Shown: piece by piece, positions 6,693-30,721 of the stretch
Numbering within the stretch: position 1 is the stretch's first letter
Layout of the letters: every line of letters begins with the position of its first letter
Assembly: GCA_964514495.1 (NCBI GenBank)
Contig: CAZERL010000003.1
Span: 1 to 33,643 of the forward strand
Source of the DNA: an uncultured archaeon
GTDB lineage: Archaea; Aenigmatarchaeota; Aenigmatarchaeia; CG10238-14; SCSR01
Reading direction: 5' to 3'
Length of the DNA stretch: 33,643 nt
Translations under genes and position numbers: made by a program
The notes under the pieces: generated by a model
The model's input: only the letters and a program-made list of their open reading frames with translations
What the model was told of the DNA's origin: nothing
Databases searched by the model: none

Positions 6693-6767
6693 ATGGATAA
6701 CAAAGGTGAATTAGTTTGGAAGCAAGGTGAACGCCTTTACACAAAGGGCGAGTGTCTTTTCAAGTAG
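6693..6767 (+). other. Zero-frame sensor ORF MDNKGELVWKQGERLYTKGECLFK with three putative +1 frameshift cassettes (Trp, Tyr, Phe) leading into aspartate kinase
   Basis: Strong SD GGGGTGA-N4-ATG; cassettes GGT GAA TTA GTT TGG (6705), GGT GAA CGC CTT TAC (6726), GGC GAG TGT CTT TTC (6747); the +1 frame is the kinase frame and opens at 6715, right after TAG 6712-6714. Confidence 0.78.
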
Positions 6768-8948: not shown

Positions 8949-9733
8949 TGAACGGTAAGGAAATTAGATTAAACAGAATATTGGAAAAAGGTAAGGCAAT
9001 AATCATACCAATGGATCATGGGACTAGTGAAGGTCCTGTAACAGGATTAACGGATATGAACGATATGGTAAGGAAATTAGGTTCCGGTGGTGCCACTGCT
9101 GTATTGTTGCATAAAGGGATAATAAAATCTTTGAAAGAACCACCTAAATGCGGACTGATAATGCATGCATCAGCTAGTACAAAACTTGCATCCGATGTAA
9201 ATAATAAAGTTCTTGTATCTGAAGTGGAAGAAGCTGTCACGCTTGGTGCTGATGCTTTTTCTGTTCATATAAACATCGGTGGGAGTGATGCTGAACCAGA
9301 AATGTTGAAAGCATTAGGAAAAGTTGCAAGGGATTGCGAAAAAATGCAAATGCCATTGTTGGCAATGATGTATGCTAGAGGCAAAAATATACAAAACCAA
9401 CTTGATGCGGATGTCCTTGCGCACGTTGCTAGAGTTGGTGCAGAATTAGGGGCTGACTTAGTCAAATGTCCATATTCAGGAGATCCTGAAACTTTCAAAA
9501 AAGTAGTTAAGGGATGTCCAGTACCTGTAATAATAGCTGGTGGTCCTAAATATGAAACTGACAGAGAAGTATTAGAAATGGTTAGAGGGGCTATGGATGC
9601 TGGTGCAATAGGAGTTTCTTTAGGAAGGAATGCATTCCAGCATAAAAATCCAACACAGATAGTAAAGGCAATAAGAAGCATCATAGTAAAGGACTCCAGT
9701 GTGGAAGAAGCATTAAAGCTATTAGGTGAGTGA
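8945..9733 (+). CDS. 2-amino-3,7-dideoxy-D-threo-hept-6-ulosonate (ADH) synthase, class I aldolase DhnA family (AroA')
   Basis: GKEIRLNRI, PMDHG, LLHKG, AMMYARG, ELGADLVK, VIIAGGPK, GRNAFQH; context of asd and DHQ synthase II; ATG at 8948. Confidence 0.9.
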   Translation: MMNGKEIRLNRILEKGKAIIIPMDHGTSEGPVTGLTDMNDMVRKLGSGGATAVLLHKGIIKSLKEPPKCGLIMHASASTKLASDVNNKVLVSEVEEAVTLGADAFSVHINIGGSDAEPEMLKALGKVARDCEKMQMPLLAMMYARGKNIQNQLDADVLAHVARVGAELGADLVKCPYSGDPETFKKVVKGCPVPVIIAGGPKYETDREVLEMVRGAMDAGAIGVSLGRNAFQHKNPTQIVKAIRSIIVKDSSVEEALKLLGE

Positions 9734-10654
9734 ATGAGAGAGCTTATAGTAAAAACTGATAACCCAAAAATTCAGAAAGAAGCAAAAGGTTTAGGCTTAG
9801 AAATAGTTACAGAAGACGAAGCCATAGAAGTTAAAAATAGGAAAGACGAAGACGAAGCCATAAAGTTAGCTAGCAAAAAAGATAAGCTCATAATCTCGTC
9901 GCCAGATTGGAAAATAATTCCGTTGGAAAATTTAGTTTCAAAATTAAAAGGAAAAGTTAAATTAATTGCAAAAGTGAAAACAGCGGAGGAAGCAAAACTA
10001 GCTTTAGGTGCATTGGAACTTGGTGCTGATGGTGTTTTACTAGATACTGACAATGTGAATGAAATCAAGAAAACAATGTCTGCAATAGAAGAATTAGAAG
10101 AGAAAGGTAAGCTTCAGTTAGTTGAAGCTACTGTTACAAACATTAACAAACTGGACTTGGGTGCAAGATCCTGCATAGATACATGTAGTCTGATGGAAAA
10201 AGGAGAAGGCATGTTGGTTGGTTGCTCTTCTCAAGGCATGTTGTTAGTTCAAGCAGAAGTTGAGGAAAATCCGAGTGTTTCTCCAAGACCTTTTAGAGTC
10301 AATGCTGGAGCTGTTTCACTATATGTGTTAGCTCCAAACAACAAGACAAGGTACATAGAAGAAGTAAAAGCTGGCGATGAAGTTCTATTAGTAAACAAAA
10401 ATGGAAAAATTAGGTCAGCTTTCGTGGGTAGATCTAAGATTGAAATAAGGCCGTTGACATTAGTAGAAGCTGAAAGTAATGGAAAAGTTGCTAAAGCAAT
10501 ACTACAAACAGCTGAAACGATAAGACTTGTAACTACCGAAGATAGTAAACCAGTAACAGAGCTTAAAGTTGGAGATAAGATACTGACTTACTTTCAAGAG
10601 GGTGGAAGGCATTTTGGAACTTTAGTTAAAGATGAATACTGTGTGGAAAAATGA
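9734..10654 (+). CDS. 3-dehydroquinate synthase II (AroB')
   Basis: DWKIIPLENL, LELGADGV, R.CIDTCSLM..GEGMLVG, RPFRVNAGAV, QTAETIRL, GRHFG. Confidence 0.93.
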   Translation: MRELIVKTDNPKIQKEAKGLGLEIVTEDEAIEVKNRKDEDEAIKLASKKDKLIISSPDWKIIPLENLVSKLKGKVKLIAKVKTAEEAKLALGALELGADGVLLDTDNVNEIKKTMSAIEELEEKGKLQLVEATVTNINKLDLGARSCIDTCSLMEKGEGMLVGCSSQGMLLVQAEVEENPSVSPRPFRVNAGAVSLYVLAPNNKTRYIEEVKAGDEVLLVNKNGKIRSAFVGRSKIEIRPLTLVEAESNGKVAKAILQTAETIRLVTTEDSKPVTELKVGDKILTYFQEGGRHFGTLVKDEYCVEK

Positions 10655-11348
10655 GTTGACTTCTATGATCAGAATATGCGCAAGTATAACTGAAAGCAAT
10701 ATAGAAGATTGCCTTAAAGCTATTTCCAAAGCAAAAGAACTAGGTGCCAGAATAGTAGAACTACGTATAGACTTTTTGGATAACCATGAAGAGATTTCAA
10801 AAATAATTCAGCAGGCAAAACTACCTTTAATAGCGACAAACAGAAGTAAAAAAGAAGGCGGGGAATTTGAAGGAAATGAAGAAGAAAGGATTAATAGTCT
10901 CATCAATGCTATTGACGATGGATGTGAATTTGTTGACATAGAGTTAAATACAAACAAGAAATTGAGAGGACGAGTTACAAATCTTGCAAGAAGAAACAAA
11001 TGTGAAGTAATAGTTTCTATTCATGATTTTAAGAAAACTCCTAATATGAAAAATTTAAATAAATTATTAACTGAAGAAAAAGCGATAGCTGACATAGGGA
11101 AAATAGTTACTTTTGGTAACAAAAATGAAGATACTATAAAAATTTTCAATTTATTGAGAATAGCCAATTCTAGAAATTTCCCTTTGATAACTTTTGCTAT
11201 GGGTTCTTTATGTAGTTTCTCTAGAATAGTGGCTCCACTATTTGGTTCATATTTAACATATGTGTCGGTAGGCAAACCGTCTGCAATTGGACAGATGAAC
11301 ATAAGGGAGATGGTAAATGTTTACAAGCAATTAGGTGTGAAAATATGA
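10632..11348 (+). CDS. aroD: Type I 3-dehydroquinate dehydratase
   Basis: ICASI, VELRIDFL, IATNR..EGG, VDIEL, SIHDF..TP, FAMG, SRI, SAIGQ; true start probably ATG 10665. Confidence 0.93.
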   Translation: MNTVWKNELTSMIRICASITESNIEDCLKAISKAKELGARIVELRIDFLDNHEEISKIIQQAKLPLIATNRSKKEGGEFEGNEEERINSLINAIDDGCEFVDIELNTNKKLRGRVTNLARRNKCEVIVSIHDFKKTPNMKNLNKLLTEEKAIADIGKIVTFGNKNEDTIKIFNLLRIANSRNFPLITFAMGSLCSFSRIVAPLFGSYLTYVSVGKPSAIGQMNIREMVNVYKQLGVKI

Positions 11349-12205
11349 TTTCTAGCAAAACTAAATTATTATGCCTTATAGGCAATCCTGTAGAGCATAG
11401 TATATCACCTCAAATGCATAATGCTATGTTTAAAGAATTGAATTTAGATTTCGCACTTGTCTCATTCAAAGTTGAAGAAACTGAATTGTCTGATGCTGTT
11501 AAAGGTATTAGAGCATTAGGCATAAAAGGAGGCAATGTAACATTACCACACAAGACAAGCATAATGAAACTTTTAGATGAAATAGATGACTCATCAAAAG
11601 AAGTGGATTCTGTAAATACTTTTTTAAATGATAATGGCATACTTAAGGGGTTCAATACAGATGGTATAGGTGCGTTAAAGGCTTTGGAAGAAAATGGTAT
11701 ATCACTTAAAAATAAGAAGGTCGTCATTATTGGTGCAGGTGGTGCATCAAAATCAATATCACATGTTGTTGCAATGGAAAGTCCATCTGAACTTGTGATC
11801 TTAAATAGAAATATAAGTAAAGCCAAATCAATCGCAGACAAGATAAATAAAAAACTTGGTAAGAAAGCAAGAGTATTTGAACTAAGTTCAGAAAATTTAA
11901 AATCAGAATTGAAAGATACCGATATACTAATTAATTGCTCATCAGTTGGTATGAAGCCCAATTTAAATGAAACTACTGTGTCTAAAGAATTTCTTCATAA
12001 AAATCTTACAGTAATGGACATTATATACAATCCATTGGAAACTAGACTACTAAAAGAAGCCAAATCAGTAGGGGCAAAGACAATTAACGGTATTGGCATG
12101 TTGGTTAATCAAGGTGCCTTAGCGTTTGAAATATGGACTGGTAAAAAAGCTCCTGTTGAATTGATGAGAAGAGTTGCAATAGAAAACTTGAAGGGATTTA
12201 CATGA
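11345..12205 (+). CDS. aroE: Shikimate dehydrogenase
   Basis: IGNPVEHSISPQMHN, GGNVTLPHK, SVNT, GFNTDG, GAGGA, DIIYNPLET.LL, MLVNQG. Confidence 0.96.
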   Translation: MISSKTKLLCLIGNPVEHSISPQMHNAMFKELNLDFALVSFKVEETELSDAVKGIRALGIKGGNVTLPHKTSIMKLLDEIDDSSKEVDSVNTFLNDNGILKGFNTDGIGALKALEENGISLKNKKVVIIGAGGASKSISHVVAMESPSELVILNRNISKAKSIADKINKKLGKKARVFELSSENLKSELKDTDILINCSSVGMKPNLNETTVSKEFLHKNLTVMDIIYNPLETRLLKEAKSVGAKTINGIGMLVNQGALAFEIWTGKKAPVELMRRVAIENLKGFT

Positions 12206-12711
12206 AAGATAATGTTGCTTTAATTGGATTCATGGGTACTGGAAAGAATTCAGTAGGGATTTCATTAGCCAAAAGGTTCAACAAAAAATTTATTGATACA
12301 GATATCCTAATTGAAAAATTAGCAGGTAAATCCATTCCAAAGATATTCAAAGAAGATGGGGAAATCAAATTCCGTGAATTAGAAATAGAAGCGATAAAGA
12401 AAGTCGCAAAAATGAAAAATGTTGTCATATCGTGTGGTGGAGGTGTCGTCCTAAATCAAATAAATATAGATAGGTTAAGAAAAAACTCAAAAATAATCTT
12501 GCTTACAGCTTCACCCAATGTTATTTTAAAAAGAATAAAAAGTGGTAAACAAAATCGTCCTCTTTTAAAAGTCTCTAATAAACTCAATACGGTTAAACAA
12601 CTTCTATCATTAAGAAAGCCTTTGTACAAAATGTCAGCAGATTACACAATAGATACTTCTAGGTTAAATGAAGGAAAGGTTGTTAACAAAACAATAGAAC
12701 TTTTGAGGTAA
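12202..12711 (+). CDS. aroK: Shikimate kinase (bacterial NMP-kinase-fold type)
   Basis: LIGFMGTGK Walker A, DTD, GE..FRELE, SCGGGVV, RPLL, R..LY. Confidence 0.94.
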   Translation: MKDNVALIGFMGTGKNSVGISLAKRFNKKFIDTDILIEKLAGKSIPKIFKEDGEIKFRELEIEAIKKVAKMKNVVISCGGGVVLNQINIDRLRKNSKIILLTASPNVILKRIKSGKQNRPLLKVSNKLNTVKQLLSLRKPLYKMSADYTIDTSRLNEGKVVNKTIELLR

Positions 12712-12715
12712 TTTT

Positions 12716-13972
12716 ATGATAGCTACAATCGAAACTAGTGAAATAAATGGAACTGTTGCTTCACCTCCTTCTAAGAGTTACACCCATAGGTCTATAATAT
12801 GTGCAGCTCTGGCAAATGGACGAAGTAAAATCATGAATCCTTTGTTAGCTGATGATACACATGCAACTATTGATGTATTAAGCAAAATAGGAGTAGGGAT
12901 TTCTGGAAATAATGATCATATAATTGTCAAAGGAAATGGTCTTTCTGAACCTAAAGAGGAATTATTTTGCAAGGAATCTGGAACTACTCTTAGGTTGATG
13001 ACATCTGTGTGTTCTTTAATCAAAGGCAGATGTAAACTAACTGGTAGCTTGTCACTATTAAAAAGACCTATAAAACCTTTAGTTGATGCTCTTGAAAAGT
13101 TAGGTGTCAATTGCTCTTGTAATGGCAACTTCCCACCTGTTATTGTAAATAACAACCTTATGGGTGGCATAACTAAAGTGCCTGGTGATATCAGCTCACA
13201 ATTTATTTCTGGATTACTCTTAGTTGCGCCGTTAACACAAAAAGAAACACAAATTTTACTGTCAACAGAACTTGAATCAAAACCTTACGTGATGATGACA
13301 ATTGATGTGCAAAAAGATTTTGGAATTGAAATAAAAACTAGCAAAAATTTAAGGAAATTTTCTGTAACTAGACAAGAGTATAAACCAAGAAATTACAAAG
13401 TAGAAGGCGATTGGTCTGCTGCATCTTTTCCACTAGCTGCAGGTGCAATTGCTGGTAGAGTTGAAGTAACTAACATAGATAATGAAAGCTTACAGGCAGA
13501 TAGAAAAATAATTGATGTACTGAAAATGATGGGTGCTAGCCTAAAGACTACATCAAAAGGTATTTTAGTGATTAAATCTAGGTTAAATGCAATAGATTTT
13601 GATGTTTCAAACTGTCCAGATTTATTTCCAATAGTATGTGTATTATGTTCTGCTGCTAATGGTACTAGCAAAATTTCTGGAATTAGAAGATTGCTGTTGA
13701 AAGAATCCAACAGGCTTGATGAGATGAAAAATGGTCTAACAAAAATGGGAGTAAAAGTAAAACAATCAAGAGACTCTATACAAATAACAGGTTCTCAAGT
13801 TAAAGGAAGTACAATAAATTCAAATGACCATAGGATTTCAATGGCATTTGGTATCTTAGGAATGATTGCTAAAGGTAAAACTATAATAAAAAATGCAGAA
13901 TGTGTTAGTAAATCTTTCCCAGAATTTTGGAATTATTTAAGCAAGTTAAATTCGAATCTTGATATAAGGTGA
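12716..13972 (+). CDS. aroA: EPSP synthase (3-phosphoshikimate 1-carboxyvinyltransferase)
   Basis: PPSKSYTHR, ESGTTLR, ISSQFISGLL, SKPYV.MT, EGDWS, KESNR, DHRISM, KSFPEF. Confidence 0.96.
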   Translation: MIATIETSEINGTVASPPSKSYTHRSIICAALANGRSKIMNPLLADDTHATIDVLSKIGVGISGNNDHIIVKGNGLSEPKEELFCKESGTTLRLMTSVCSLIKGRCKLTGSLSLLKRPIKPLVDALEKLGVNCSCNGNFPPVIVNNNLMGGITKVPGDISSQFISGLLLVAPLTQKETQILLSTELESKPYVMMTIDVQKDFGIEIKTSKNLRKFSVTRQEYKPRNYKVEGDWSAASFPLAAGAIAGRVEVTNIDNESLQADRKIIDVLKMMGASLKTTSKGILVIKSRLNAIDFDVSNCPDLFPIVCVLCSAANGTSKISGIRRLLLKESNRLDEMKNGLTKMGVKVKQSRDSIQITGSQVKGSTINSNDHRISMAFGILGMIAKGKTIIKNAECVSKSFPEFWNYLSKLNSNLDIR

Positions 13973-13976
13973 CATT

Positions 13977-15071
13977 ATGAATGGCAATAGTATAGGCAAA
14001 GCGTTCAAGGTAACAAGTTTCGGAGAAAGTCATGGAAGATGTGTAGGTGCAATTATAGACGGTTGTCCTGCAGGTTTAAAGCTAGATACAGAAAAAATTC
14101 AGAGAGATCTAGATAGAAGAAAACCTGGACAAAGTACAATAACAACTGCCAGGAGGGAGGAAGACAAATTAGAAATAATATCAGGGGTTTTAAACGAATT
14201 TACTACTAGTGCACCAATTTGTATGCTAACATGGAACAAAGATGTAATTTCGAGTGGCTATGAACAAAGAAGATTTACAGTGAGACCAGGCCATGCTGAT
14301 TACACAGCATTCATGAAATACGGCGGGTTCGAAGATTACAGGGGAGGTGGAAGGTTTTCTGCTAGAATAACCACTGGATTTGTGATGGCAGGCGCTTTAG
14401 CAAAACAATTACTGAGTTTGTTAAATATAGAAATTCTAGCGCATACTGTTGAAATTGGTGGAATCAAAGCTAGAGAAATGTCGGTTGACGATATAAGAAA
14501 AAATACGGAAACAAATGAGGCAAGATGTGCTGATTCAGAAACTGCTAAAAAAATGATAGAAAGAATAAAGCAAGTAAGACTTGAAAAGGATAGCTTAGGA
14601 GGACTTGTTGAAGGTATTGCTTTGAATGTTCCAGTTGGTTTAGGTGAACCTGTTTTTGATAATTTGGATAGTGAATTAGCTAAAGCACTATTTGCTATAC
14701 CTGCAGTTAAAGCAGTAGAATTTGGTTTAGGATTTCAAAGTAGTAGACTAAAAGGCTCTGAAAATAATGATATTTTTGTTATGAAAAAAGGTAAGATTGT
14801 AACTAAAACAAATAATTCTGGGGGAATATTGGGCGGCTTAAGTAATGGTATGCCTATTGTTGTTAAAGTGGGTTTTAAACCTATATCATCCATTCCAAAA
14901 GAACAAAAAACTATTAACATGAAAGAAATGAAAGAAACGGAAATAAAATCTATTGGTAGATTTGACCCTTGCCCTGTGCCAAGAGCAATTCCTATTGTTG
15001 AATCTATGATGGCTATAGTGTTGTGCGACTTTGCACTTCGTTCACAATTGATTCCAAGAGTGATTAAATGA
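13977..15071 (+). CDS. aroC: Chorismate synthase
   Basis: FGESHG, RRKPGQ, RPGHAD, GGGRFSARIT, DSLGG, NNSGGILGG, GRFDPC. Confidence 0.97.
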   Translation: MNGNSIGKAFKVTSFGESHGRCVGAIIDGCPAGLKLDTEKIQRDLDRRKPGQSTITTARREEDKLEIISGVLNEFTTSAPICMLTWNKDVISSGYEQRRFTVRPGHADYTAFMKYGGFEDYRGGGRFSARITTGFVMAGALAKQLLSLLNIEILAHTVEIGGIKAREMSVDDIRKNTETNEARCADSETAKKMIERIKQVRLEKDSLGGLVEGIALNVPVGLGEPVFDNLDSELAKALFAIPAVKAVEFGLGFQSSRLKGSENNDIFVMKKGKIVTKTNNSGGILGGLSNGMPIVVKVGFKPISSIPKEQKTINMKEMKETEIKSIGRFDPCPVPRAIPIVESMMAIVLCDFALRSQLIPRVIK

Positions 15072-15346
15072 AATCACAAAAGATCATTATAGAACAAAGG
15101 GAAAGGATAGATAAAATAACTGAAAAATTGATTGAATTAATTGCCGAGAGAAAGAAACTGACATTTAAAATTAGTGAGCTAAAGAAGAAGTCTAGCATAC
15201 CTTCGATTGATCATGAACGGGAAAAGAAAATAATTAGCAATGCCAAAAAACTTGCTAAAAAGTTCAAGGTTAGTCCTAGTCTCGTAGAAAACATAATGAA
15301 ATTACTGATTAATGATTCTAGAAAGACCAAGGTTAATTTGTTATGA
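15068..15346 (+). CDS. Chorismate mutase type II (AroQ)
   Basis: RERIDKI..KLIELIAER, K, D.ERE AroQ pattern; 92 aa helical. Confidence 0.88.
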   Translation: MKSQKIIIEQRERIDKITEKLIELIAERKKLTFKISELKKKSSIPSIDHEREKKIISNAKKLAKKFKVSPSLVENIMKLLINDSRKTKVNLL

Positions 15347-16152
15347 GAATTGCATTTCAAGGAGAAATGGGAGCATATAGTGAAGAAACAGCTTTTAAGT
15401 ATTTTGGCAATTCTATTGTCACTATACCATGTAAAGATTTGAAAAAAGTGTTTAATGAAGTAGAAAAACGAAAAGCAGATTACGGCATTGTACCAGCTGA
15501 AAATTCCATAGAAGGTAGTATTATTCAAACTTATGATTTGTTACTTGAACATAACTTACATATTATTGGTGAAGTAATTCAAAGAATTGTTCACTGTTTG
15601 ATTGCTAGTAAAAGTTCTAATTTAAGATCTATAAAAACTGTATATTCACATCCTCAAGCCTTAGGCCAATGTAGAGATTTTTTGGACAAATCAAAATGCG
15701 AAGTCATGCCAACATATGACACTGCTGGTAGTGTTAAAATGATAAAGGAAAGGAAACTGAAATATGTTGCGGCCATAGCAAGTGAGCTATCTGCAAAAAT
15801 TTATGATATGAAAATTCTAGCAAAGGGGATTGAAGGTAATCGCAACTTTACAAGGTTTTTTATAATTGGCAAAAATGAAACAAAGCCTACAGGAAATGAT
15901 AAAACATCTTTAGCACTTGTGATAAAACATATACCAGGTTCTTTGGCTAGCGCGTTGAAATTATTTGCATCTGAGAAAATTAACTTAACTCATATTCAAT
16001 CTAGACCGCTGTTGGGCAAGCCATGGGAATATACTTTTTACATAGATTATGAAGGGCATAAAGATGATGAACATTTTAAAAAAGCACTTAACAATCTAAA
16101 CAAGGTTTCGTTATTTGTGAAAGTATTGGGCTCCTATCCTAAGGTGAAGTAA
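15343..16152 (+). CDS. pheA: Prephenate dehydratase
   Basis: IAFQGEMGAYSE, PAENSIEG, SHPQALGQC, NFTRF, ACT domain with IQSRP, LGSYP. Confidence 0.96.
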   Translation: MRIAFQGEMGAYSEETAFKYFGNSIVTIPCKDLKKVFNEVEKRKADYGIVPAENSIEGSIIQTYDLLLEHNLHIIGEVIQRIVHCLIASKSSNLRSIKTVYSHPQALGQCRDFLDKSKCEVMPTYDTAGSVKMIKERKLKYVAAIASELSAKIYDMKILAKGIEGNRNFTRFFIIGKNETKPTGNDKTSLALVIKHIPGSLASALKLFASEKINLTHIQSRPLLGKPWEYTFYIDYEGHKDDEHFKKALNNLNKVSLFVKVLGSYPKVK

Positions 16153-17220
16153 ATGCTATATGATATACATGAAAAAGTAAAGGAACTTGAAAGTAAAGGA
16201 AAGGAGATAATAAAATTCAACATAGGCGATCCTGATCAAGATACTGATAAAAGAATTGTAAAAATGGCTTTGGAAGCAATTGAAAGGGGTGAAACTAAAT
16301 ATGGAAGTTCTTTTGGAAATCATGAGCTTAGAAAAGAATTGGCGGATATCCATAATGTTGATATAAATAAGGTAATTATCACACCAGGTTCTAAATGGGC
16401 AATATTTTCCACTATGTATTTATTACTTAAAGAAGGGGATAATGTTGTAATACCATCCCCACACTATACTGCATACGAACTTATTGCAAAACAAGTTAAG
16501 GCAAAGGTAAAGCTTTTGGAATGCTCATTAGATAATGATTGGGATATTGATGTAGACAAATTGGAAAATTTGATAGATGACAAAACTAAAATCATTGTAC
16601 TAAATAGTCCTAATAACCCTACGAGTAAAGTTATTAAAAAGAAAACTTTGGAAAATATAGTAGAAACAGCTAACAAAAAAAATATTACTATTCTATCAGA
16701 TGAAGTTTATTCTGATATATCTTTTGTTAAAACGACGAGTATACTAGATATCGATAAAAATCATATTTTTGTGAACAGTTTTTCTAAGACATTTGCTATG
16801 ACAGGATGGAGAATTGGGTATGCGATCATTAGTAAAGAGTTAGCAAACAAAATAGCTACCTTAAATCAAATAACAATAACCAATGTGCCGTTATTTATAC
16901 AAGCAGCTATTTTAAAAGTTCTGAAATATAAAGAGAGAATTTCTAGCAAAATGAGAAATATTTACAAAAAGAGGGCGGATTTAGCTTACAAAATACTATC
17001 CAAAACAAGATTAAAATTCTCGAAGCCTGATGCACCATTTTATCTTTTCCCATATTGTAGAATGAATTCTGAAGAACTTGCCGATAAATTAATTCAAAAA
17101 GGTATAGCAATTGTACCAGGAACAGCTTTTGGTAATTACAAAGAATACTTTAGGTTAGCATTAACATTATCAGATGCAGAAATTAAGACTGGTCTAGAGA
17201 AATTGGTTGAGGTCTTATGA
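16153..17220 (+). CDS. PLP-dependent class I/II aminotransferase (probably aromatic amino acid aminotransferase)
   Basis: IGDPD, LNSPNNPT, SDEVY, NSFSKTFAMTGWRIGY; lies between pheA and tyrA. Confidence 0.9.
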   Translation: MLYDIHEKVKELESKGKEIIKFNIGDPDQDTDKRIVKMALEAIERGETKYGSSFGNHELRKELADIHNVDINKVIITPGSKWAIFSTMYLLLKEGDNVVIPSPHYTAYELIAKQVKAKVKLLECSLDNDWDIDVDKLENLIDDKTKIIVLNSPNNPTSKVIKKKTLENIVETANKKNITILSDEVYSDISFVKTTSILDIDKNHIFVNSFSKTFAMTGWRIGYAIISKELANKIATLNQITITNVPLFIQAAILKVLKYKERISSKMRNIYKKRADLAYKILSKTRLKFSKPDAPFYLFPYCRMNSEELADKLIQKGIAIVPGTAFGNYKEYFRLALTLSDAEIKTGLEKLVEVL

Positions 17221-18053
17221 AAGTAGCAATAATTGGTGGAGCGGGGAAAATGGGTAAGTGGTTTTGTAATTTTTTCCTAAATGAAGGATATGAAGTAATA
17301 GTTTCTGGTAGAAAGGAAACCAAACTAAATAAATTAGTTAAGCAATTTAATGTGAAATCAGCGAAGAACAATATAGAAGCTATAAAAAATGCTGATTTGA
17401 TAATGATTGCTGTCTTATTTCAAGATTTTGAAAGTGTAGTAAAGGAAATTGCACCCGCTATTAATAATACCCAAAAAGTCGTAGATATAACATCAATTAA
17501 AGATCAACCAGTAAAAATAATGCACAAATACATAAAAAGAGGTATTACGTTGGGCGCACATCCCATGTTTGGTCCTAATGTTAAAGACAATAATCATAAT
17601 TTTGTTCTAACACCTGTAACTAAAAAAGAAAGGGCATATGCACAAGAATTTTCAAATTGGTTAACAAAGAAAGGCTTTAATGTTAGCATTATGCCACCTA
17701 GGAGGCATGATGAGTTAATGTCTACTATTTTAGGACTGCCACATTTTATAGGTCTTGTCACTGCAGATACTTTGACAAACTTAAATCTTAAAGAACTTAA
17801 AAAGGTTTGTGGTACAAGTTTTAACATGCTTTTAGAGCTCACAACTAATGTTATATCAAATGACCCAGAATTTTATTCGCACTTACAGATGATCTTACCA
17901 AAAATCAATAAAGTTGAGTCTTTATTTTCTGATAAAACTAAAAAATGGCTAACCATTGTAAATAAAGAAGATAAATCACAATTCAAAAGAGAAATGATAA
18001 AAATAGCACAAAAAAGCAAATATTTATTAGTTAGTAAGGACGAAAATATATAG
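17217..18053 (+). CDS. tyrA: Prephenate/arogenate dehydrogenase
   Basis: IIGGAGKMG, DITSIK, HPMFGP, HDELM..ILGLPH. Confidence 0.93.
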   Translation: MKVAIIGGAGKMGKWFCNFFLNEGYEVIVSGRKETKLNKLVKQFNVKSAKNNIEAIKNADLIMIAVLFQDFESVVKEIAPAINNTQKVVDITSIKDQPVKIMHKYIKRGITLGAHPMFGPNVKDNNHNFVLTPVTKKERAYAQEFSNWLTKKGFNVSIMPPRRHDELMSTILGLPHFIGLVTADTLTNLNLKELKKVCGTSFNMLLELTTNVISNDPEFYSHLQMILPKINKVESLFSDKTKKWLTIVNKEDKSQFKREMIKIAQKSKYLLVSKDENI

Positions 18054-18255: not shown

Positions 18256-18288
18256 TAGGGCAAAAAAGTTGCCCTAAAGGTTTATAAA
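18256..18288 (+). promoter_or_regulatory. Putative trp-operon promoter: perfect palindrome TAGGGCAA-N5-TTGCCCTA abutting BRE/TATA (TTTATAAA 18281-18288)
   Basis: 8-bp perfect inverted repeat 18256-18276; TATA begins 37 nt before ATG 18318. Confidence 0.65.
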
Positions 18289-18317
18289 TACGAGTATATT
18301 AATTATAAATTGATTGT

Positions 18318-18353
18318 ATGAAGAGTGATTGTGTTTGGCATACCAAGAAGTGA
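18318..18353 (+). other. Zero-frame sensor ORF MKSDCVWHTKK with a Trp +1 frameshift cassette leading into the wHTH gene
   Basis: (G)AGT GAT TGT GTT TGG; the +1 frame is the wHTH ORF; near-leaderless ATG. Confidence 0.7.
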
Positions 18354-18624
18354 ATTTAAGATTTTCTTAGGACAATCGCTCAACAAAAAAGAAACTGAAT
18401 TGCTTCGTTCTTCCAATAGGTTACGAGGAAATACCTTTTATTATGTGGTTAAGAGGTTGTCAGAGAAGGGGTATTCACCAAGTACAATCAAATTTGTTCT
18501 AAAGCGACTTAAATATTTAAACTTGGTTGATTTTGGCGATGGCAAAAGCAGAGGCAAGCCCCTCGTATTAACTGCGTTAGGTCAGATATTCCTAGAAGTC
18601 ATCAGTGGTGAAAAGTATGGGTGA
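18325..18624 (+). CDS. Winged helix-turn-helix protein, putative transcription regulator of trp/aro genes
   Basis: Basic 99 aa protein; SPSTIKFVLKRLKYLNLVDF recognition helix and LTALGQ wing end. Confidence 0.72.
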   Translation: MIVFGIPRSEFKIFLGQSLNKKETELLRSSNRLRGNTFYYVVKRLSEKGYSPSTIKFVLKRLKYLNLVDFGDGKSRGKPLVLTALGQIFLEVISGEKYG

Positions 18625-18679
18625 ATATCTTTGGAAATGCAATGAACTTTGTAGCTCCCAAAAGAATCAAAATAGATAA
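18617..18679 (+). other. Zero-frame sensor [23 protein letters not shown] with a Trp +1 frameshift cassette leading into trpE
   Basis: SD GGTGA(18607)-N5-ATG; GGT GAA TAT CTT TGG; the +1 frame is trpE. Confidence 0.7.
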
Positions 18680-19991
18680 GAAAATAGATACAAAATTTTC
18701 GCCTTTTGAAATTTACTGTAAGATTAATGAAAATTTTGGAACTTCTTTCCTTTTAGAATCAAGAGAAGGTAAAAGAAAGTTGGCTAGATTCTCTTTTATA
18801 GGATTTGAGCCTTCTCATATATTAAAAGCAAATAGCAAATTCCTAACTATCAATGATAAGAAGATTATTTGTAAAGATCCCTTATTAGAATTGCGTTCAA
18901 TAGTTTCTAAAAAATTTGGGATTAGATCTGGTTTCTTAGGCGGTGCAGTAGGATACATAACCTATGATTATGTCAGAAGTATAGAAACTATACCTAATAC
19001 AACAAAAGATGAATTCAAGTTTCCAGATTTCGAATTCGGTATATTTCAAGATTGCTTAGTATTTAATCATAGGAAAAATGAATTGAGATATCTTTCATGT
19101 GATAAGAATAGATTACCTTTAATTAAAAAAATCATACATAAAGAAACCAATAACTCTAATCTAGAGATTGGAAAAATAAAAGCAAACATGAGTAAAAGAA
19201 GATTTGAAAACATCGTAAGCAAATCTAAAGAATACATAAAAAGTGGTGATATACTCCAAGTGGTTTTGTCTAGAAGGTACAAATTCTCTTTTAAAGGAAA
19301 CCTTATTGAATTTTACAAAAATCTCAGAAAAATCAACCCATCACCATACATGTATTACATAAAATTTGGAAAAAGACAAATTATTGGAACTAGTCCTGAG
19401 AATCTAGTTAGAGTAGAAGGCAAAAAAATAGATAGCTATGCAACCATTGCTGGAACAAGACATAGAGGGAAAACAAAAGCCGAAGATAAAAAGTTAGAAA
19501 AGGAATTGTTGTCAGATAAAAAGGAACGAGCAGAACATCTGATGCTTGTAGATCTGACAAGGAATGACATTGGAAAGGTATCTAGTTTTGGTTCTGTCAA
19601 AGTTCCAGAGTTCATGCAAGTATACAAATTCAGTCATGTACAACATATTGTATCTAGAGTCGCAGGAAAATTAAACAACCATGATTGTTTTGACGTATTC
19701 AAATCCATATTCCCTGCTGGAACAGTCAGTGGTGCACCGAAGATTAGAGCAATGGAAATAATTGAAGAATTAGAACCTGCTAAAAGAGGACCTTATGCTG
19801 GTGCAGTTGGTTATTTTTCCTTTAATGGTAATGCTGACTTTGCGATAACTATCAGAAGCCTATTTGCAAATGACAATAAGGCATTTATTCAGGTTGGAGC
19901 CGGCATAGTATACGATTCTATTCCAGAAAGAGAATTTTTTGAAACAGAAAATAAAGCAAAGGCTTTGTTAAAGGCTTTAAAAGGTGATTAA
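18621..19991 (+). CDS. trpE: Anthranilate synthase component I
   Basis: [66 protein letters not shown]. Confidence 0.96.
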
Positions 19992-19993
19992 AA

Positions 19994-20533
19994 GTGAGTC
20001 AATTAGATGAAATTAAAAATGAATTAAAAATATATTCAGATTTCCCAAAAAAAGGAATTAAGTTTTTAGATATCAGTCCATTAATCAGCAATCCAAAGAA
20101 TTTTAGAACAGTAATAAATGCTCTATACAAAAAATACAAAAATTCTGGAATAAATAAAATAATTGCTGTCGAATCTCGTGGGTTCTTGTTTGCTAGTGCA
20201 TTAGCATTGTTAATGAAAGCTCCTTTGGTTATGGCTAGGAAGAAAGGCAAACTTCCAGGTACTGTTATTAGTTATTATTACAAATCAGAATATGGTAAAA
20301 ACGTACTTGAACTACGAAAAGATTCAATTAATCCAAATGATAAACCTTTGGTACTTGATGATGTTTTCGCAACTGGAGGTACGCTTAATGCAGTTATATC
20401 CATTTTGAAGAAAATAGGCTGTTCTGATTATAGATGTTGTACAATAATAAATCTGACGGATATCGAAAAGAAATATAATCCTGGTAATGTTAACTCTTTG
20501 ATTGATTTTTCTGTTAATGGTGAGATTCTATGA
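19994..20533 (+). CDS. apt: Adenine phosphoribosyltransferase-like type I PRTase
   Basis: [50 protein letters not shown] loop. Confidence 0.88.
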
Positions 20534-21108
20534 AAATTCTTATTATTGATAATTACGATTCATTCGTATACAATCTTTACCAATATTTTGGTAGTTTGGG
20601 AAATGATGTAATTGTAATCAGGAGTGATAAACTTACACTAGAAGACGTTAGCAAATTAGCACCAGACAAGATTGTAATATCACCTGGTCCAGGTTCACCT
20701 GAAGATAGGAAATATTTTGGTGTCTGTTTGGATGTTATAAAAAGATTCGGTAAAAAAATTCCAATATTGGGAGTTTGTTTGGGACATCAAGGAATAATTT
20801 ATTCATTTGGCGGCAGGATAGTTAGGGCAAAAGAACCAATGCATGGTAAAACTAGTTCAATTAAACACAATGGTAAAGATATTTTCAAAGATATACCAAA
20901 TCCAATTATAGGAACTAGGTATCATTCTTTAGTTGGTGAAAAATCTTCATTACCTCAATGTTTAGAGGTAACTGCAACCAGTTTAGATGACAAGGAAATA
21001 ATGGCAATAAAACATAAAGAATATCCTATATATGGCGTCCAATTTCATCCTGAAGCTATAATGACACAACATGGTATGAGGATAATTGAAAATTTTTTGG
21101 TGATTTGA
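20530..21108 (+). CDS. trpG: Anthranilate synthase component II (glutamine amidotransferase)
   Basis: IDNYDSF.YNL.QY, ISPGPG.P, GVCLGHQ, HGK.S, RYHSL, GVQFHPE. Confidence 0.96.
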
Positions 21109-22121
21109 TGGAAATAAAAACAATATTGAAAAAAGTAGTCAATTATCAGAATTTAACGGAAAAAGAGGCAGAATTCGCCATAAATCAAATAACAGAAGGT
21201 AAATTAACTAATGCACAAATAGTCTGTTTGCTTATTGCATTGAAAATGAAAGGAGAAACTGTAGAAGAGATTACTGCTTTCGCAAAAGTTATGAGAGAAA
21301 AGGCATTTAAAATAAAACCTCGTGTAAAGATGCTCGTTGACGTATGCGGTACTGGTGGTGATGTTAGTAATAGTTTTAATATTTCTACAACTGCAGCTTT
21401 TGTTGTAGCAGGTGCTGGGATACCTGTAGCAAAACACGGCAACAGATCTGTGTCCAGTAAATGTGGTTCAGCTGATGTTTTAGAATATCTTGGGATTGAC
21501 TTAAACTTAACGCCGAAGAAAATAGAAAAAATTATTGAGAAGATTGGAATAGGATTCTTGTTTGCACCATCTTTCCATCCTTCAATGAAACATGTTAAAG
21601 ATGCGAGAAGAGAGATTGGCATAAGAACTATATTTAATATTTTAGGTCCTTTGACTAATCCTGCAAATGCAAACATTCAACTTATGGGCGTATTTGACCC
21701 GAATTTAACTGAACCTTTAGTTCATGTTCTCAAAAATCTTGGACTAAAATCAACATTAGTTGTTCATGGCTCTGGTTTAGATGAAATAACAACTACAGGA
21801 AAAACTAAGATTTCTGAATTATATAATGGTAAAATTAAAACTTATTATATAAAACCTGAAAATTTTAGTTTCAAACAAAACAAGCTTAGTGAAATTCAAA
21901 CTAAATCTATCAAAGAAAATGCAAACTCATTGTTAGATGTATTGAAAGGTAACAATAGTGCAAAAAGAAATATCGTGTTGATGAATGCTGGTGCTACGAT
22001 ATACATAGCTGGAAAGGCTTCCAGCATTAAAGAAGGTATAGGAATTGCTAAAGACTCTATAGATTCTGGCAAGGCTTTAGAAAAACTATATATGTTGAGG
22101 GATTTCAATGGACATTCTTGA
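21105..22121 (+). CDS. trpD: Anthranilate phosphoribosyltransferase
   Basis: [50 protein letters not shown]; ATG at 21108. Confidence 0.96.
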
Positions 22122-22878
22122 TAAATTCATTGAACAAGCAAAAGAGAATATAAGAAACGGATATTATAATCCATATAGTAAGATTGAATTAAACAAAAAA
22201 AGAATTTCTCTAAAACAAAAACTAACTCAACATTTTACTTTAATTGCAGAAATAAAACATGCTTCACCTGCTGGAGAATATTCTTTCGATTACATAGATG
22301 TTGAAAAGGCTGCATTTACATTTAGAGATGCTGGTGTGGATGCTATTTCAGTGGTAGTAGAACCAAAAATTTTCAAGGGGCATTTGAATAACATTATCAT
22401 TACAAAAAAAACCAGTTTACCTGTACTTTTCAAAGATTTTATCATTAACGAAACTCAAATAAGAACTGCCGCAGCATTGGGAGCAGATTGTATACTTCTA
22501 ATTATGAAAGTGGCAGAGAGGTTGAATCTAGACCTTAACAAGTTCATAAAAACAGCTCATTCTTATGGTTTAGAAGTCTTATTGGAATGCTATGACAAAA
22601 AAGAAATGCAAAAAGCACTGGAGACAGAAGCTGATATTCTTGGCATAAATAATAGAGATTTACGAACATTGCAAGTTGGTTTAAATCGGACTAAAGAGAT
22701 TATGGAATATTTTAATGGTACAAATAGGTTAGATAGACCAGTCATAAGCGAGAGTGGGATAAAATCGAGGAAAGATGCTGAATTTGTAAAATCAACAGGA
22801 GTAAACGGTATACTAGTTGGCACCGCCATTTGGACTGCAGCATATCAATATGCAAAAATCAAGGAACTTAGGTTGTGA
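22108..22878 (+). CDS. trpC: Indole-3-glycerol phosphate synthase (monofunctional)
   Basis: IAEIK.ASP, AISV..EP..F.G, PVL.KDFI, GAD.ILLI, GINNRDL, ISESGI. Confidence 0.93.
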
Positions 22879-24047
22879 TTGAGATGAAAAGTAAATTTGG
22901 AGAATTTGGTGGGAGGTTTGTCCCAGAAACATTAATGCCTGCTTTAGAAGAATTGGGTGAGGCATGCAAGAAATATTTGAATGATTCGAAATTTAAAAAA
23001 GAACTCAATGAACTGTTAAGAAATTATGCTGGCAGGCCAACACCTCTTTACTTTGCAGAATCACTTAGCAAGCATTTGAATGTGAAAATTTATTTCAAGC
23101 GCGAAGACTTACTACATGGCGGAGCGCATAAGATAAACAATACATTAGGACAAGTTTTATTAGCAAAAAGAATGGGAAAGACAAGAGTTATAGCAGAAAC
23201 TGGTGCTGGCCAGCATGGTGTGGCTACTGCAATGGCTTGTGCTGCATTAGGATTAAAATGCGAAATTTACATGGGTGCTGTGGATGTAGAGAGACAGAAG
23301 CCGAATGTATTAAGGATGAAATTATGCGGAGCTAAACTAAATATTGTTCATAGTGGCTCAAAAACATTGAAAGATGCTATTAACGAAGCATTGAGGGATT
23401 GGGTCACTAATGTCAAAAATACATATTACATGCTTGGCTCAGTAGTAGGACCACATCCTTATCCAACCATGGTTAGAGAATTCCAAAGAGTAATAGGGAA
23501 AGAAACAAAACGACAGTGTTTAAATCAAATAGGAAGACTGCCAGAGATTATAGTAGCCTGTGTTGGTGGAGGGAGTAATGCAATTGGAATCTTCTACGAT
23601 TTCCTTAAAGATAAGAAAATAAAGTTAATAGGTATTGAAGCTGCTGGCAAAGGGTTGAATACAAACAAGACTGCCGCCACATTATCTAAAGGTTCGAAAG
23701 GTGTGCTACATGGTTCACTTAGTTATTTACTTCAAGATGCACAAGGCCAAGTTAGTACAACCCACAGCATTGCAGCTGGCTTAGATTATCCTGGAGTAGG
23801 GCCCGAGCATGCTTACTTGAAACATCTCGAGAGAATTAAATATACATCTGTTACTGATAAAGAAGCTCTTGAAGCTTTCAAATTACTATCAAAATTAGAA
23901 GGGATTATACCAGCGTTAGAGCCATCTCATGCTATTGCGTATGTAATGAAGATCGCTAATCAACTAAAAAATAAAACTGTTGTAATAAACCTCTCGGGAA
24001 GAGGTGACAAAGATATAGAACAACTTGAACTAGGTGATATGACATGA
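22875..24047 (+). CDS. trpB: Tryptophan synthase beta subunit (TrpB1)
   Basis: [64 protein letters not shown]; ATG at 22884. Confidence 0.97.
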
Positions 24048-24823
24048 CACTTATTGATGACGTGTTTAATAAATTGAGAGTCAACAAAGAGAAAGCGTTG
24101 ATTACTTACATATGCGGTGGTGATCCTGACATCAAGACTAGCATAGAAATAGCTAAGGTTGTTGAAAAATATTCTGACATAATTGAATTAGGTATACCAT
24201 TTAGCGATCCGATAGCTGACGGACCTACGATACAAAAAGCTACTGAAAGGTCACTAGCAACTGGAACTAAAACAAAAGATGTATTAAAGATTGCTTCTGT
24301 TCTTAAGAAACCAGTTGTAATAATGACTTACTATAATATAATTTACAAATATGGTATAAGGCAATTCTGCAATGATGCAAAAAGAAATAATGTGCATGGA
24401 ATAATCATACCAGACTTGCCTCCTGAAGAAGCTAAAGATATTGTAAAGCATGCTGATGGCTTGAATTTGATATTTTTGATATCACCATTCTCTACGGATG
24501 AAAGAATAAAATTAATATCTAAAATTTCCTCTGGATTTGTTTATCTTGTATCTTTGCTAGGTACAACCGGAGAAAGGGAACAAGTGTCTAAAGATGCGAA
24601 ACAATTAGTAACGCGAGTGAGAAAATATACGAACAAACCTTTAGTGTTAGGATTTGGTATATCCAAGCCTGAGCATGTCAAGACTGCATTAAGTTATGGT
24701 GCAGATGGTGTAGTGGTTGGTAGTGCGATTGTAAAGTTAATAGAACAGAATTTAAGCAACAAACTCGATATTTTAAATAAACTAGAAACATTTTGTAGAA
24801 GATTGAAAGAAGCAACAAGATGA
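24044..24823 (+). CDS. trpA: Tryptophan synthase alpha subunit
   Basis: [51 protein letters not shown]. Confidence 0.97.
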
Positions 24824-25947
24824 TAGCAATGACTAAAGAATTTGTAGTCACACCATGGGAAGTTAAAGGTGATATTGATTATGATAAGTTGGTAAAGCAG
24901 TTTGGTGTAAAGTTAATCGACGATTCAATTCTAAAGAGAGTGGAGAAACTTACTGGAGAATTGCATTATTTCCTTAAGAGAAAGATTTTCTTTTCTCATA
25001 TGTATTTTGACTCGATTCTGGAAGATGTTGAAAACAAGAAGAAGTTTTATCTGTATACAGGGCGAGCCCCATCCGGACCAGTTCATTTGGGACATTTGAT
25101 TCCATGGATATTTTGCAAATGGTTGCAGGATAAATTAGATGTGAACTTATTGTTCCAAATACCCGATGAAGAGAAGTTTTTCTTCAAGGAAGAACTGACA
25201 TTGGAAGATACGAAGAAATGGGCTTATGAAAATATACTAGATATAACAGCTATTGGGTTTGACCACAAGAAGACGAAGATATTTTTGGATACAGAATATG
25301 CAGGACATATGTACAAGTATGCTTGCTTGGTTGCAAAGAAAACCACATTATCTACTGCCAAAGCCTTGTTCGGATTCAATGATTCTAATAATTTGGGTGA
25401 AGTATTCTATACAAGCATGCAGTCTGTACCGTCATTTATGCCTACTATACTGGAAGGTAAATCAACGCAGTGTTTGATTCCTTGTGCCATAGATCAGGAC
25501 GTCCATTTCCGTTTAACCAGAGATGTTGCGCCGAAGATAGGATATCCAAAGCCAGCAACTATACTTTGCAGATTTTTGCCAAGCCTTGCAGAGGGAGGGA
25601 AGATGTCTACCTCAGTCGAAAATACAGCAATCTTTACTAACGATAAACCAGAACAAGTTAGAAATAAAATTTTGAAATATGCATTCTCTGGGGGAAGGGA
25701 TACTGTAGAAGAGCATAGAAAGAAGGGTGGTGTGCCTGAGGTTGATGTATCTTACCAGTATCTTACATACTATCTTGAAGATGACAAGAAACTAAAGAAA
25801 ATTTATGAAGATTATAAGTCTGGGAAAATGCTGACTGGTGAACTTAAAGAAATTACAATTGGGTTAATAAACAAATTCTTGAAAGACCACCAAAATAAAA
25901 AAGAGAAGGCAAAAGACGTGATCGAGAAATTTATGTTAAGAGATTAA
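24820..25947 (+). CDS. trpS: Tryptophanyl-tRNA synthetase (archaeal/eukaryotic type)
   Basis: VTPWEV.G.IDYDKL, YTGRAPSG.VHLGH, PCAIDQD.HFRLTRD, KMSTS, YAFSGG. Confidence 0.96.
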   Translation: MIAMTKEFVVTPWEVKGDIDYDKLVKQFGVKLIDDSILKRVEKLTGELHYFLKRKIFFSHMYFDSILEDVENKKKFYLYTGRAPSGPVHLGHLIPWIFCKWLQDKLDVNLLFQIPDEEKFFFKEELTLEDTKKWAYENILDITAIGFDHKKTKIFLDTEYAGHMYKYACLVAKKTTLSTAKALFGFNDSNNLGEVFYTSMQSVPSFMPTILEGKSTQCLIPCAIDQDVHFRLTRDVAPKIGYPKPATILCRFLPSLAEGGKMSTSVENTAIFTNDKPEQVRNKILKYAFSGGRDTVEEHRKKGGVPEVDVSYQYLTYYLEDDKKLKKIYEDYKSGKMLTGELKEITIGLINKFLKDHQNKKEKAKDVIEKFMLRD

Positions 25948-30622: not shown

Positions 30623-30721
30623 TGCCCCCGGAGGGATTTGAACCCTCGACCTTCTCCTGACTCCAAATTTAGAAGGGAGCTGCTATAGACTTTCCATCTA
30701 TCCGAACTGAGCTACAGGGGC
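30623..30721 (-). tRNA. tRNA-Arg(UCU) with two introns (13 nt in D-arm, 30685-30697; 11 nt at 37/38, 30659-30669)
   Basis: Acceptor GCCCCTG/CGGGGGC, T-arm GAGGG-TTCAAAT-CCCTC, anticodon TCT at 30673-30671, A20; removing both inserts gives a 75-nt cloverleaf; no encoded CCA. Confidence 0.88.

Follow-up and report, generated by a model that had tools for sequence, protein, structure and literature searches.

A candidate tryptophan-sensing frameshift gate ahead of a Tar-like winged-helix regulator in an archaeal trp operon

Overlapping frames at the head of a trp operon

We examined a 33,643-nucleotide stretch of DNA from an uncultured archaeon of the Aenigmatarchaeota (GenBank assembly GCA_964514495.1, contig CAZERL010000003.1, positions 1–33,643; hereafter the window), which derives from a groundwater metagenome and carries the gene of a small winged-helix regulator at the head of a tryptophan (trp) operon. 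A short zero-frame leader, MKSDCVWHTKK*, starts at ATG 18318 and ends at a TGA (18318–18350, plus strand, stop at 18348–18350; ATG AAG AGT GAT TGT GTT TGG CAT ACC AAG AAG TGA). The 99-codon open reading frame (ORF) of the regulator lies in the +1 frame of this leader (18325–18624, plus strand, stop TGA at 18622–18624) and is shut just upstream by the TGA within aTGA (18319–18321). Inside the leader, a Shine-Dalgarno-like GAGTGAT (18323–18329, plus strand) stands 3 nt before the codon pair GTT TGG (18333–18338, plus strand), the proposed +1 shift site; with the Val codon in the P site and the Trp codon in the A site, the post-slip reading would be TTT and then GGC. An earlier description of this DNA, made without database searches (the sequence-only reading), had named the leader, the winged-helix frame entered by a +1 slip, a TATA box and a palindrome, and each of these is found letter for letter. 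The called GTG start that it placed inside the Shine-Dalgarno-like motif is GTG 18325, within GAGTGAT.

The regulator gene follows a 264-nt intergenic gap behind prephenate dehydrogenase and is succeeded by trpE, a phosphoribosyltransferase-like ORF, trpG, trpD, trpC, trpB, trpA and tryptophan-tRNA ligase (TrpRS). The gap holds the palindrome TAGGGCAA-N5-TTGCCCTA (18256–18276, assigned to neither strand), which may serve the regulator as operator. A TATA-box-like TTTATAAA (18282–18289, plus strand) follows it after 5 nt, and 28 nt separate this box from ATG 18318. Counterpart palindromes of the form GG(G/A/T)CAA-N5-TTG(T/C)CC occupy the same promoter position in orthologs (GGGCAA-N5-TTGCCC in the window), and the TATA-to-ATG spacing there is similar (~29–31 nt). 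From this distance, the 5′ leader of the regulator mRNA would be very short. With no mismatch allowed, AGGGCA-N7-TGCCCT has its sole copy in the 1.04-Mb assembly at the palindrome itself (18256–18276); a genome-wide search for a second operator at up to two mismatches, for instance before the aro cluster, gave none that was convincing or in a promoter-like place. Four DNA read sets were compared without any difference emerging, and 18435–18684 was covered unchanged by one run other than the probable source run.

The Shine-Dalgarno-like element matches how ribosomes appear to be recruited in this genome. Chorismate mutase at 15068 is preceded by GAGTGA-TTAA-ATG, as the sequence-only reading had remarked, and the motif fits a genome-wide preference: across 850 long ORFs, the distance to the first ATG peaks at 9 nt for GGTGA and AGTGA and at 8 nt for GTGAT, and the 3′ end of the 16S rRNA (..GGATCACCTCCTTAA) is complementary to these motifs. 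Shine-Dalgarno sequences also stand ahead of the leader ATG in relatives, such as AGGAGGTGA-N7-ATG in locus L022.

A second leader of the same design, MGEYLWKC..* (18617–18679, plus strand), begins at ATG 18617 and overlaps the regulator stop. It has GGTGA-N5 ahead of it (18607–18611) and reads GGT GAA TAT CTT TGG into a candidate shift site, CTT TGG (18629–18634). The gene trpE (anthranilate synthase I; 18621–19991, plus strand) lies in its +1 frame, and the second Trp gate postulated earlier is in this sense borne out by the sequence. Since trpE also has an in-frame ATG at 18642, this second gate is optional here.

We then sought to identify the regulator by profile and structure searches. 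The protein contains no Trp, as had been reported, and it matched NCBIfam NF053753 (TK0271/Tar) at E 2.1e-5 with 24.6 bits over profile positions 5–86 of 89, short of the 130-bit cut-off of that family. Apart from this, the sole NCBIfam match was spurious (E 0.11), and Pfam returned no family at E ≤ 0.01. As judged from the profile match, the regulator is a distant relative of Tar (TK0271) and not an equivalog member, a kinship that the sequence-only reading had not recognised. That reading had set the proposed control apart from TrpY-type repression, and no family match to TrpY was obtained. An AlphaFold2 model (mean predicted local distance difference test score 85.1) folds as a winged helix with the topology H-H-H-H-hairpin-H (H, helix), and its best Foldseek matches in the PDB were weak ones to the MarR family (E 3e-3 and worse, template modelling score 0.58–0.67). 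A homologous-protein search matched the window protein only to itself (1 of 5 candidates) and a paralog from the same genome (contig C91) to 2 proteins, with no Thermococcales relatives, and a related-locus search from the single window protein confirmed 0 of 214 pattern matches. A profile built from six relatives recovered 484 cluster representatives at E ≤ 1e-3.

Leaders and specifier codons across the regulator family

The window protein alone found matches in 8 of 41 related genomes, and a 17-sequence profile did so in 33 of the 118 genomes searched within the order and in 64 of 371 across the phylum; the family set comprises 98 distinct loci from 64 small archaeal genomes (0.3–1.2 Mb). 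An out-of-frame ATG leader is present at 74 of the 98 loci, where 23 require a +1 shift and 51 a −1 shift to reach the regulator frame. The leader arrangement exceeds chance: 9/9 close orthologs of the order (identity down to 29%, GC content 31–55%) keep the aTGA stop and have an ATG lying 7 nt upstream of where GTG 18325 falls, and a +1 leader with NTT/CTG-TGG is found in 12/12 Trp-type relatives from other orders. The upstream out-of-frame ATG in homologs, on which the sequence-only reading had staked its case, is present at 20/20 Trp-type loci, and the tie to trp loci that it expected is seen in the 15 of 20 that carry TrpRS on the same strand, window included.

The two classes have distinct signatures. 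The pattern GGTGA/AGTGA-N4-NTT-TGG is present in most +1 cassettes (absent or displaced in L062, L067 and L068), and the codon before TGG across the 20 Trp-type first cassettes is GTT (7), CTT (11), TTT (1) or CTG (1). Common to the −1 leaders is NNC CAA, with CGA or CGG as rare replacements of CAA, ahead of a single variable codon that we refer to as the specifier. Scanning the window's own genome for these patterns gave four +1-type matches, among which the window regulator cassette alone was convincing and the trpE cassette was missed; the −1-type pattern gave 381 matches, mostly inside genes, and was dropped as too permissive.

The position at which a shift must fall is narrowly confined at several loci. 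Among −1 loci, L026, L027, L032, L037, L038, L042 and L059 have a regulator frame that becomes open one or two codons upstream of CCA, and the leader ends directly after the specifier in L026 and L042 (MVIDSRF* in L042). Only 4–5 pairs of P-site and A-site codons, around CRR and the specifier, are possible in L042, L032, L037, L038 and L059. Among +1 loci, L066 and L067 leave just two open codons of the regulator frame ahead of TGG, and leaders stop two codons past TGG in L016, L017, L018, L065 and L070. From the opening of the frame to profile position 15, no in-frame ATG, GTG or TTG occurs in 3 of 23 +1 loci (L062, L065 and L068) and 27 of 51 −1 loci (30/74 in total); the first in-frame start comes at codon +51 in L046 and at codon +94, beyond the matched domain, in L090. 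Read-through of TGA was ruled out as a substitute by three consecutive TGAs in the regulator frame of genome G001, and a small intron or transcriptional slippage by the 4–5-codon-pair windows and the lack of homopolymers at −1 sites. The position of the leader's stop codon was also considered as a signal; it is a by-product, falling on a conserved Leu-Lys/Arg of the regulator frame.

Second cassettes of seven codons equivalent to that before trpE follow the regulator in L014, L015, L016, L020 (with a TTG start), L062, L063, L064, L069 and L073. NTT-TGG is found in 10 second cassettes, besides the NTT/CTG-TGG of 20/20 first cassettes; Pfam matched 0/6 of the ORFs behind second cassettes. The tightest case is the cassette in L016, ATG ACT GGT GAA GTA GTT TGG TGA, in which TGG is the last sense codon of the zero frame. 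Its +1 frame, closed up to that point by a TAG, becomes open precisely with TTT and continues as a 296-codon ORF whose first in-frame start is codon 129, which confines a shift to GTA|GTT, GTT|TGG or TGG|TGA; the GTG there meets a stop two codons on (GTG-AAG-TAG). Behind the second cassette of L073 lies a 328-codon ORF with its first start at codon 44, and the homologous product in L071 starts three residues past the junction.

We then compared the junction codon with the aminoacyl-tRNA synthetase encoded downstream, assigning codons by an automatic rule and synthetases by tblastn labels; in the −1 class, this took in the loci whose codon is defined by the motif and which have a synthetase gene downstream. 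The codon agreed with the synthetase at 23 of 24 −1 loci and at 15 of 15 +1 loci (14 with TrpRS and one with LeuRS behind GTT CTC). When labels were shuffled in the −1 class (100,000 shuffles), a mean of 9.6 and a maximum of 19 loci were concordant. Family models confirmed the synthetases for Trp, Tyr, Pro, Leu, Ser and Phe (TrpRS, TyrRS, ProRS, LeuRS, SerRS and PheRS alpha and beta). By these models, TGG goes with TrpRS (window, L018, L021), TAY with TyrRS (L024, L029, L050, L052), CCA with ProRS (L040, L049) or ornithine cyclodeaminase (L028, L049), CTC with LeuRS (L022), TCC with SerRS (L027), and TTY with PheRS alpha downstream (L023, L048) or PheRS beta just upstream (L038, L059). Tyr codons, or Tyr, Trp and Phe codons in series, precede prephenate dehydratase, prephenate dehydrogenase or an aminotransferase (L035, L051, L036), and CTT TTC precedes prephenate dehydratase in L093. 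Two predictions had been made in advance, and both held: SerRS for L027, where the junction reads CAA TCC, and proline genes in the group with CAA CCA.

The regulators themselves are poor in the cognate residue. Of 18 Tyr-type regulators, 17 lack Tyr altogether, and the type as a whole has a single Tyr in 1871 residues, against 2.2–2.5% Tyr in other types; Pro makes up 0.65% of Pro-type regulators (2.6–3.0% in other types) and Phe 1.33% of Phe-type regulators (4.7–5.3%). Trp-type regulators hold 3 Trp in 2050 residues, compared with 1.08% Trp in the Phe type, and in triple-aromatic regulators Trp, Tyr and Phe are all low. Such depletion is expected of proteins that need to be completed while that amino acid is short. 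Together, the covariation of codon and synthetase over six amino acids and the cognate depletion support the earlier suggestion that the ribosome would act as the Trp sensor.

A proposed starvation-gated frameshift and its alternatives

The arrangement is best read as a regulatory programmed frameshift with T-box-like logic: we consider it fairly probable that, in the window, a Trp-sensing +1 programmed ribosomal frameshift controls whether the Tar-like winged-helix factor is made. The architecture, its conservation, the covariation with neighbouring genes and the residue depletion are observed, and the frameshift, its response to Trp and the activation are deduced from them. Transcription would begin a few bases before ATG 18318, and ribosomes starting there would read MKSDCV, placing GTT in the P site and TGG, the one Trp codon of the leader, in the A site. 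When Trp-tRNA is plentiful, reading would continue to the stop after 11 codons, and that ribosome would yield no regulator. When Trp-tRNA is scarce, the empty A site would hold the ribosome, a hold to which pairing of GAGTGAT with the 3′ end of the 16S rRNA may add; the P-site tRNA could then slip from GTT to TTT, Gly-tRNA would read GGC, and the regulator would be completed in the +1 frame. Being free of Trp, the regulator could be completed during starvation. It would then bind the palindrome that stands just ahead of the TATA box and, if it behaves as Tar does, activate its own promoter, driving trpE to trpA together with TrpRS; the second cassette (ATG 18617, CTT TGG) would gate trpE translation in the same manner. 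In the −1 cassettes, the shift may be a one-tRNA ‘hungry’ slippage with a vacant A site, as the accessible parts of two accounts describe (PMC5009743; PMC8211752).

Beyond the window, we lean slightly towards the wider idea that small-genome archaea use modular ‘ribosomal T-boxes’, in which a starved specifier codon in a short leader changes the reading frame and switches on a gene. The cassette would take a +1 form, an SD-like (Shine-Dalgarno-like) element-N4-NUU-specifier, or a −1 form, C-CAA-specifier, and its target would be either a Tar-like activator lacking the cognate amino acid or an enzyme or synthetase gene itself. OR-logic for aromatic starvation would result where codons for Tyr, Trp and Phe follow one another in a leader.

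Several observations weigh against the frameshift gate. The slips are imperfect: GUU→UUU mispairs at position 1, and CAA→CCA in the −1 class mispairs at position 2 while keeping positions 1 and 3. The Shine-Dalgarno sequence before ATG 18318 is weak (TTGAT), and the transcription start of the regulator mRNA is placed from sequence features. Among the family loci, 24 of 98 lack such a leader, some having a plain in-frame ATG; these 24 include three GTG/TTG-started leaders of the same kind, one locus cut by a contig end and two subfamilies with separate leaders. One locus, L107, is discordant (Trp codon, TyrRS downstream), several TrpRS labels are best tblastn matches only (26–37% identity), and many loci have neighbours of unknown function, with nothing in Pfam for several of the neighbouring ORFs. 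The loci are moreover kin, so that the concordance counts and the shuffle test overstate independence; there are roughly eight independent codon/gene groups, spread over both shift directions. To these is added the presence of in-frame GTGs at 18325 and 18331, which means that a frameshift is not strictly required in this genome; the leader architecture described by the sequence-only reading stands, and on sequence grounds each part of its interpretation withstood the check set against it, but its wording that the regulator appears to need a frameshift goes too far for this genome.

These GTGs also underlie the best-surviving alternative, which we regard as unlikely, namely that translation starts at a GTG (18325 or 18331) and a competing, overlapping upstream ORF tunes it by occlusion or stalling with the frame unchanged. 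An in-frame GTG is kept here and in 8 of 9 close orthologs (GCG in L020), where it could be a start codon and not a Shine-Dalgarno-like stimulator, the gene caller's product and the database protein begin at 18331, and called homologs begin M-x-x-F-G. The same GTG belongs to the GGTGA motif, however, and is also explained as a frameshift stimulator. A GTG start fails where no in-frame start exists, in L062, L065, L068, the second cassettes of L016 and L073 and 27 of 51 −1 loci, and the GTG in the L016 second cassette leads to a stop two codons on. A ribosome stalled at TGG would also cover the GTG and lower expression during starvation, the wrong direction for a trp activator.

Alternatively, the leader could sense the amino acid while the frame stays the same, with the stall altering mRNA stability, structure or transcription in an attenuation-like way and the regulator starting at ATA or ATT. 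We judge this quite improbable. Two related subfamilies do have separate leaders, of ~30 codons (..FW..*, with TrpB-like and TrpRS genes) and of 23 codons (with LeuRS), and ATA or ATT directly follows CCA in many −1 loci. Pro-type loci, however, have ACC at this place and not AT[AT], and the Shine-Dalgarno sequence is placed for the out-of-frame ATG, at least 15 nt from ATA. No conserved RNA structure was seen, and none was sought. Stalling alone also leaves the exact frame overlap at the specifier codon unexplained.

Very improbable is the reading that the arrangement has no function, being an assembly error, transcriptional slippage, an intron or a by-product of AT-richness and a conserved N-terminus (V-x-x-F-G giving GTT TGG): Phe-Gly as TTT GGN does automatically give TGG in the other frame, and 18304–18413 is covered by the probable source run only, but the same architecture recurs at 74 loci in many independent assemblies, the junction codon tracks the neighbouring synthetase over six amino acids, the cognate residue is depleted in the regulators, no homopolymer at −1 sites is long enough for slippage and the 4–5-codon-pair windows leave no room for an intron.

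The proposed Trp-gated frameshift shares features with several known systems. In Thermococcales, Tar (TK0271) activates aromatic amino-acid genes once Trp, Tyr or Phe is lacking, and it acts through a Tar box, TGGACA-N8-TGTCCA, upstream of the transcription factor B recognition element (BRE) and TATA box (PMC6737238). According to the accessible text of that report, Trp, Tyr and Phe all fail to release Tar in vitro, the sensing of their absence is left open and erythrose 4-phosphate is proposed as effector (PMC6737238). Like Tar, the window regulator is a small (~90–100 residues) helix-turn-helix-type protein encoded with aromatic amino-acid genes; the palindromic GGNCA/TGNCC half-sites of its predicted operator lie just upstream of BRE/TATA, and it has no recognisable ligand domain, much as Tar has no demonstrated amino-acid ligand. 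The match to Tar is distant (24.6 bits against the cut-off), the half-site spacing is N7 versus N8, and in the text available to us no leader or frameshift is described for Tar (PMC6737238). By this analogy, the earlier guess that the factor would be an activator fits both the distant kinship to Tar (PMC6737238) and the position of the candidate operator. TrpY of Methanothermobacter is likewise an archaeal regulator of the trp operon; it is described as a Trp-binding repressor (PMC6737238, in the text accessible to us), unlike the translational sensing proposed here.

The closest mechanical parallel is the +1 frameshift of release factor 2 (RF2; prfB), which, in the available portion of its description, likewise has a short zero-frame ORF, an upstream Shine-Dalgarno-like element and a functional product in the +1 frame (PMC5009743). 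Both would use an NUU slip codon followed by U (CUU UGA C in prfB; CUU/GUU UGG N here), with a slowly decoded A-site codon acting, as we infer, as the sensor. Unlike in RF2, the A-site codon is a sense codon, Trp-tRNA and not the gene's own product would be sensed, the output would be a transcription factor plus biosynthetic and synthetase genes, and the Shine-Dalgarno-like spacing equals the genome's initiation optimum instead of being shorter. As in T-boxes and leader-peptide attenuation, a codon cognate to the regulated synthetase or pathway would report tRNA charging and starvation would turn genes on, with one ‘specifier’ codon per specificity as in T-boxes. Unlike in either, the codon would be read by the ribosome and the output would be a change of frame in an archaeal host, with no tRNA-binding RNA and no terminator or antiterminator. 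Hungry-codon frameshifting (Gallant) and the CUU AGG C of Ty1 are errors or fixed-ratio devices; a conserved, amino-acid-specific regulatory sensor is proposed here.

The accessible text of a 2021 review names a single archaeal −1 programmed frameshift, in fucA1, plus viral cases (PMC8211752). In the available part of a preprint on the Nanobdellota, frameshifts are counted only as a matter of assembly quality, and a winged-helix regulator and PheRS alpha appear among the phylum markers without being linked (bioRxiv 10.64898/2026.05.13.725050). A search of full-text literature for a frameshift-gate system of this kind found no description. To our knowledge, how archaea sense amino acids and control synthetase and biosynthesis genes is largely unknown, we know of no T-boxes or attenuators in archaea, and Tar is the one aromatic regulator characterised there. 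If the proposed gate is real, it would be a third solution, beside T-boxes and attenuation, to one problem and the first amino-acid-specific regulatory frameshift. In the wider form of modular cassettes, it could supply the step that is missing in amino-acid sensing, both for Tar-type regulators and for the aminoacyl-tRNA synthetase genes of archaea in general. Programmed frameshifts in archaeal cellular genes would rise from the one reported −1 case (fucA1; PMC8211752, as far as its accessible text extends) to dozens. It would also bear on annotation, in which these regulators are now called truncated or with wrong starts: the database products of the two family members in this genome have 97 and 69 residues, and the starts of called family products are scattered over the profile.

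Further features of the locus and the family

The trp operon continues from the phosphoribosyltransferase-like ORF through TrpRS on the plus strand (19994–25947). The TrpRS gene (24820–25947, plus strand; NF008927, 502.6 bits, cut-off 478) is the last of the operon and overlaps the trpA stop, so that Trp biosynthesis and charging would be co-transcribed. The ORF between trpE and trpG (19994–20533, 179 residues, PF00156) is an unusual member of a trp operon. Upstream, the aro-side cluster extends over 6727–18053 on the plus strand, from aspartate kinase, aspartate-semialdehyde dehydrogenase, a DeoC-type aldolase and 3-dehydroquinate synthase II to prephenate dehydrogenase. The first three of these genes occupy 6727–9733, at the head of the cluster and ahead of 3-dehydroquinate synthase II, a set that agrees with the way archaea enter the shikimate pathway from aspartate semialdehyde. 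In the whole window, an Rfam search at gathering thresholds matched nothing but one tRNA (30623–30721, minus strand, 99 nt, 43 bits), which was missed by ARAGORN and may contain an intron.

The paralog on contig C91 (genome G000, locus L010; 1155–1432) scores 52.9 bits to the Tar family, closer than the window protein. Its −1 leader, MIQPKTLISI* (ATC CAA CCA), is a Pro-type cassette, and downstream of it, to position 2788, lie an ORF with a tRNA-binding domain and a class II synthetase 79% identical to the ProRS of L049.

Other arrangements occur in parts of the family. A LeuRS-linked subfamily (L081, L082, L084, L085, L087 and L095) lacks the overlapping leader and has a separate conserved 23-codon ORF (MGKNTY.M.WK.F...HI..NLCL*) in no fixed frame, ~230–290 nt ahead of the core of the regulator. 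Behind this ORF comes a CCCTGGTCG..T-rich stretch that is likewise conserved, and the arrangement may be a different, attenuation-like sensor. A further group (L078, L094, L100, L103 and L109) has an in-frame ATG and a separate ~30-codon leader 150–250 nt upstream of the regulator core, before TrpB-like and TrpRS genes. A TATA box lies ~23 nt ahead of the start of this leader, whose end reads ..K/Y-F-W-x-x-x-stop, with TTT TGG present once more. Tandem family members stand ahead of an aminotransferase in L036 (846–1160 and 1456–1800) and also in L058 and L060, where a Phe leader (MMPIQFKSLL*) belongs to the first member and a Tyr leader (MPIQYVCQIETGKT*) to the second. In the TyrRS-linked loci L098 and L108, the leader has three Tyr codons (MSDYDYAYQ.. 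and MTDYDYCYQ..) and no C-CAA motif. Finally, a gene of the Asp/Glu-racemase family (PF01177) repeatedly follows regulators with aromatic specifiers, often ahead of TyrRS or TrpRS (L053, L056, L057, L067, L080, L088, L089 and L107).

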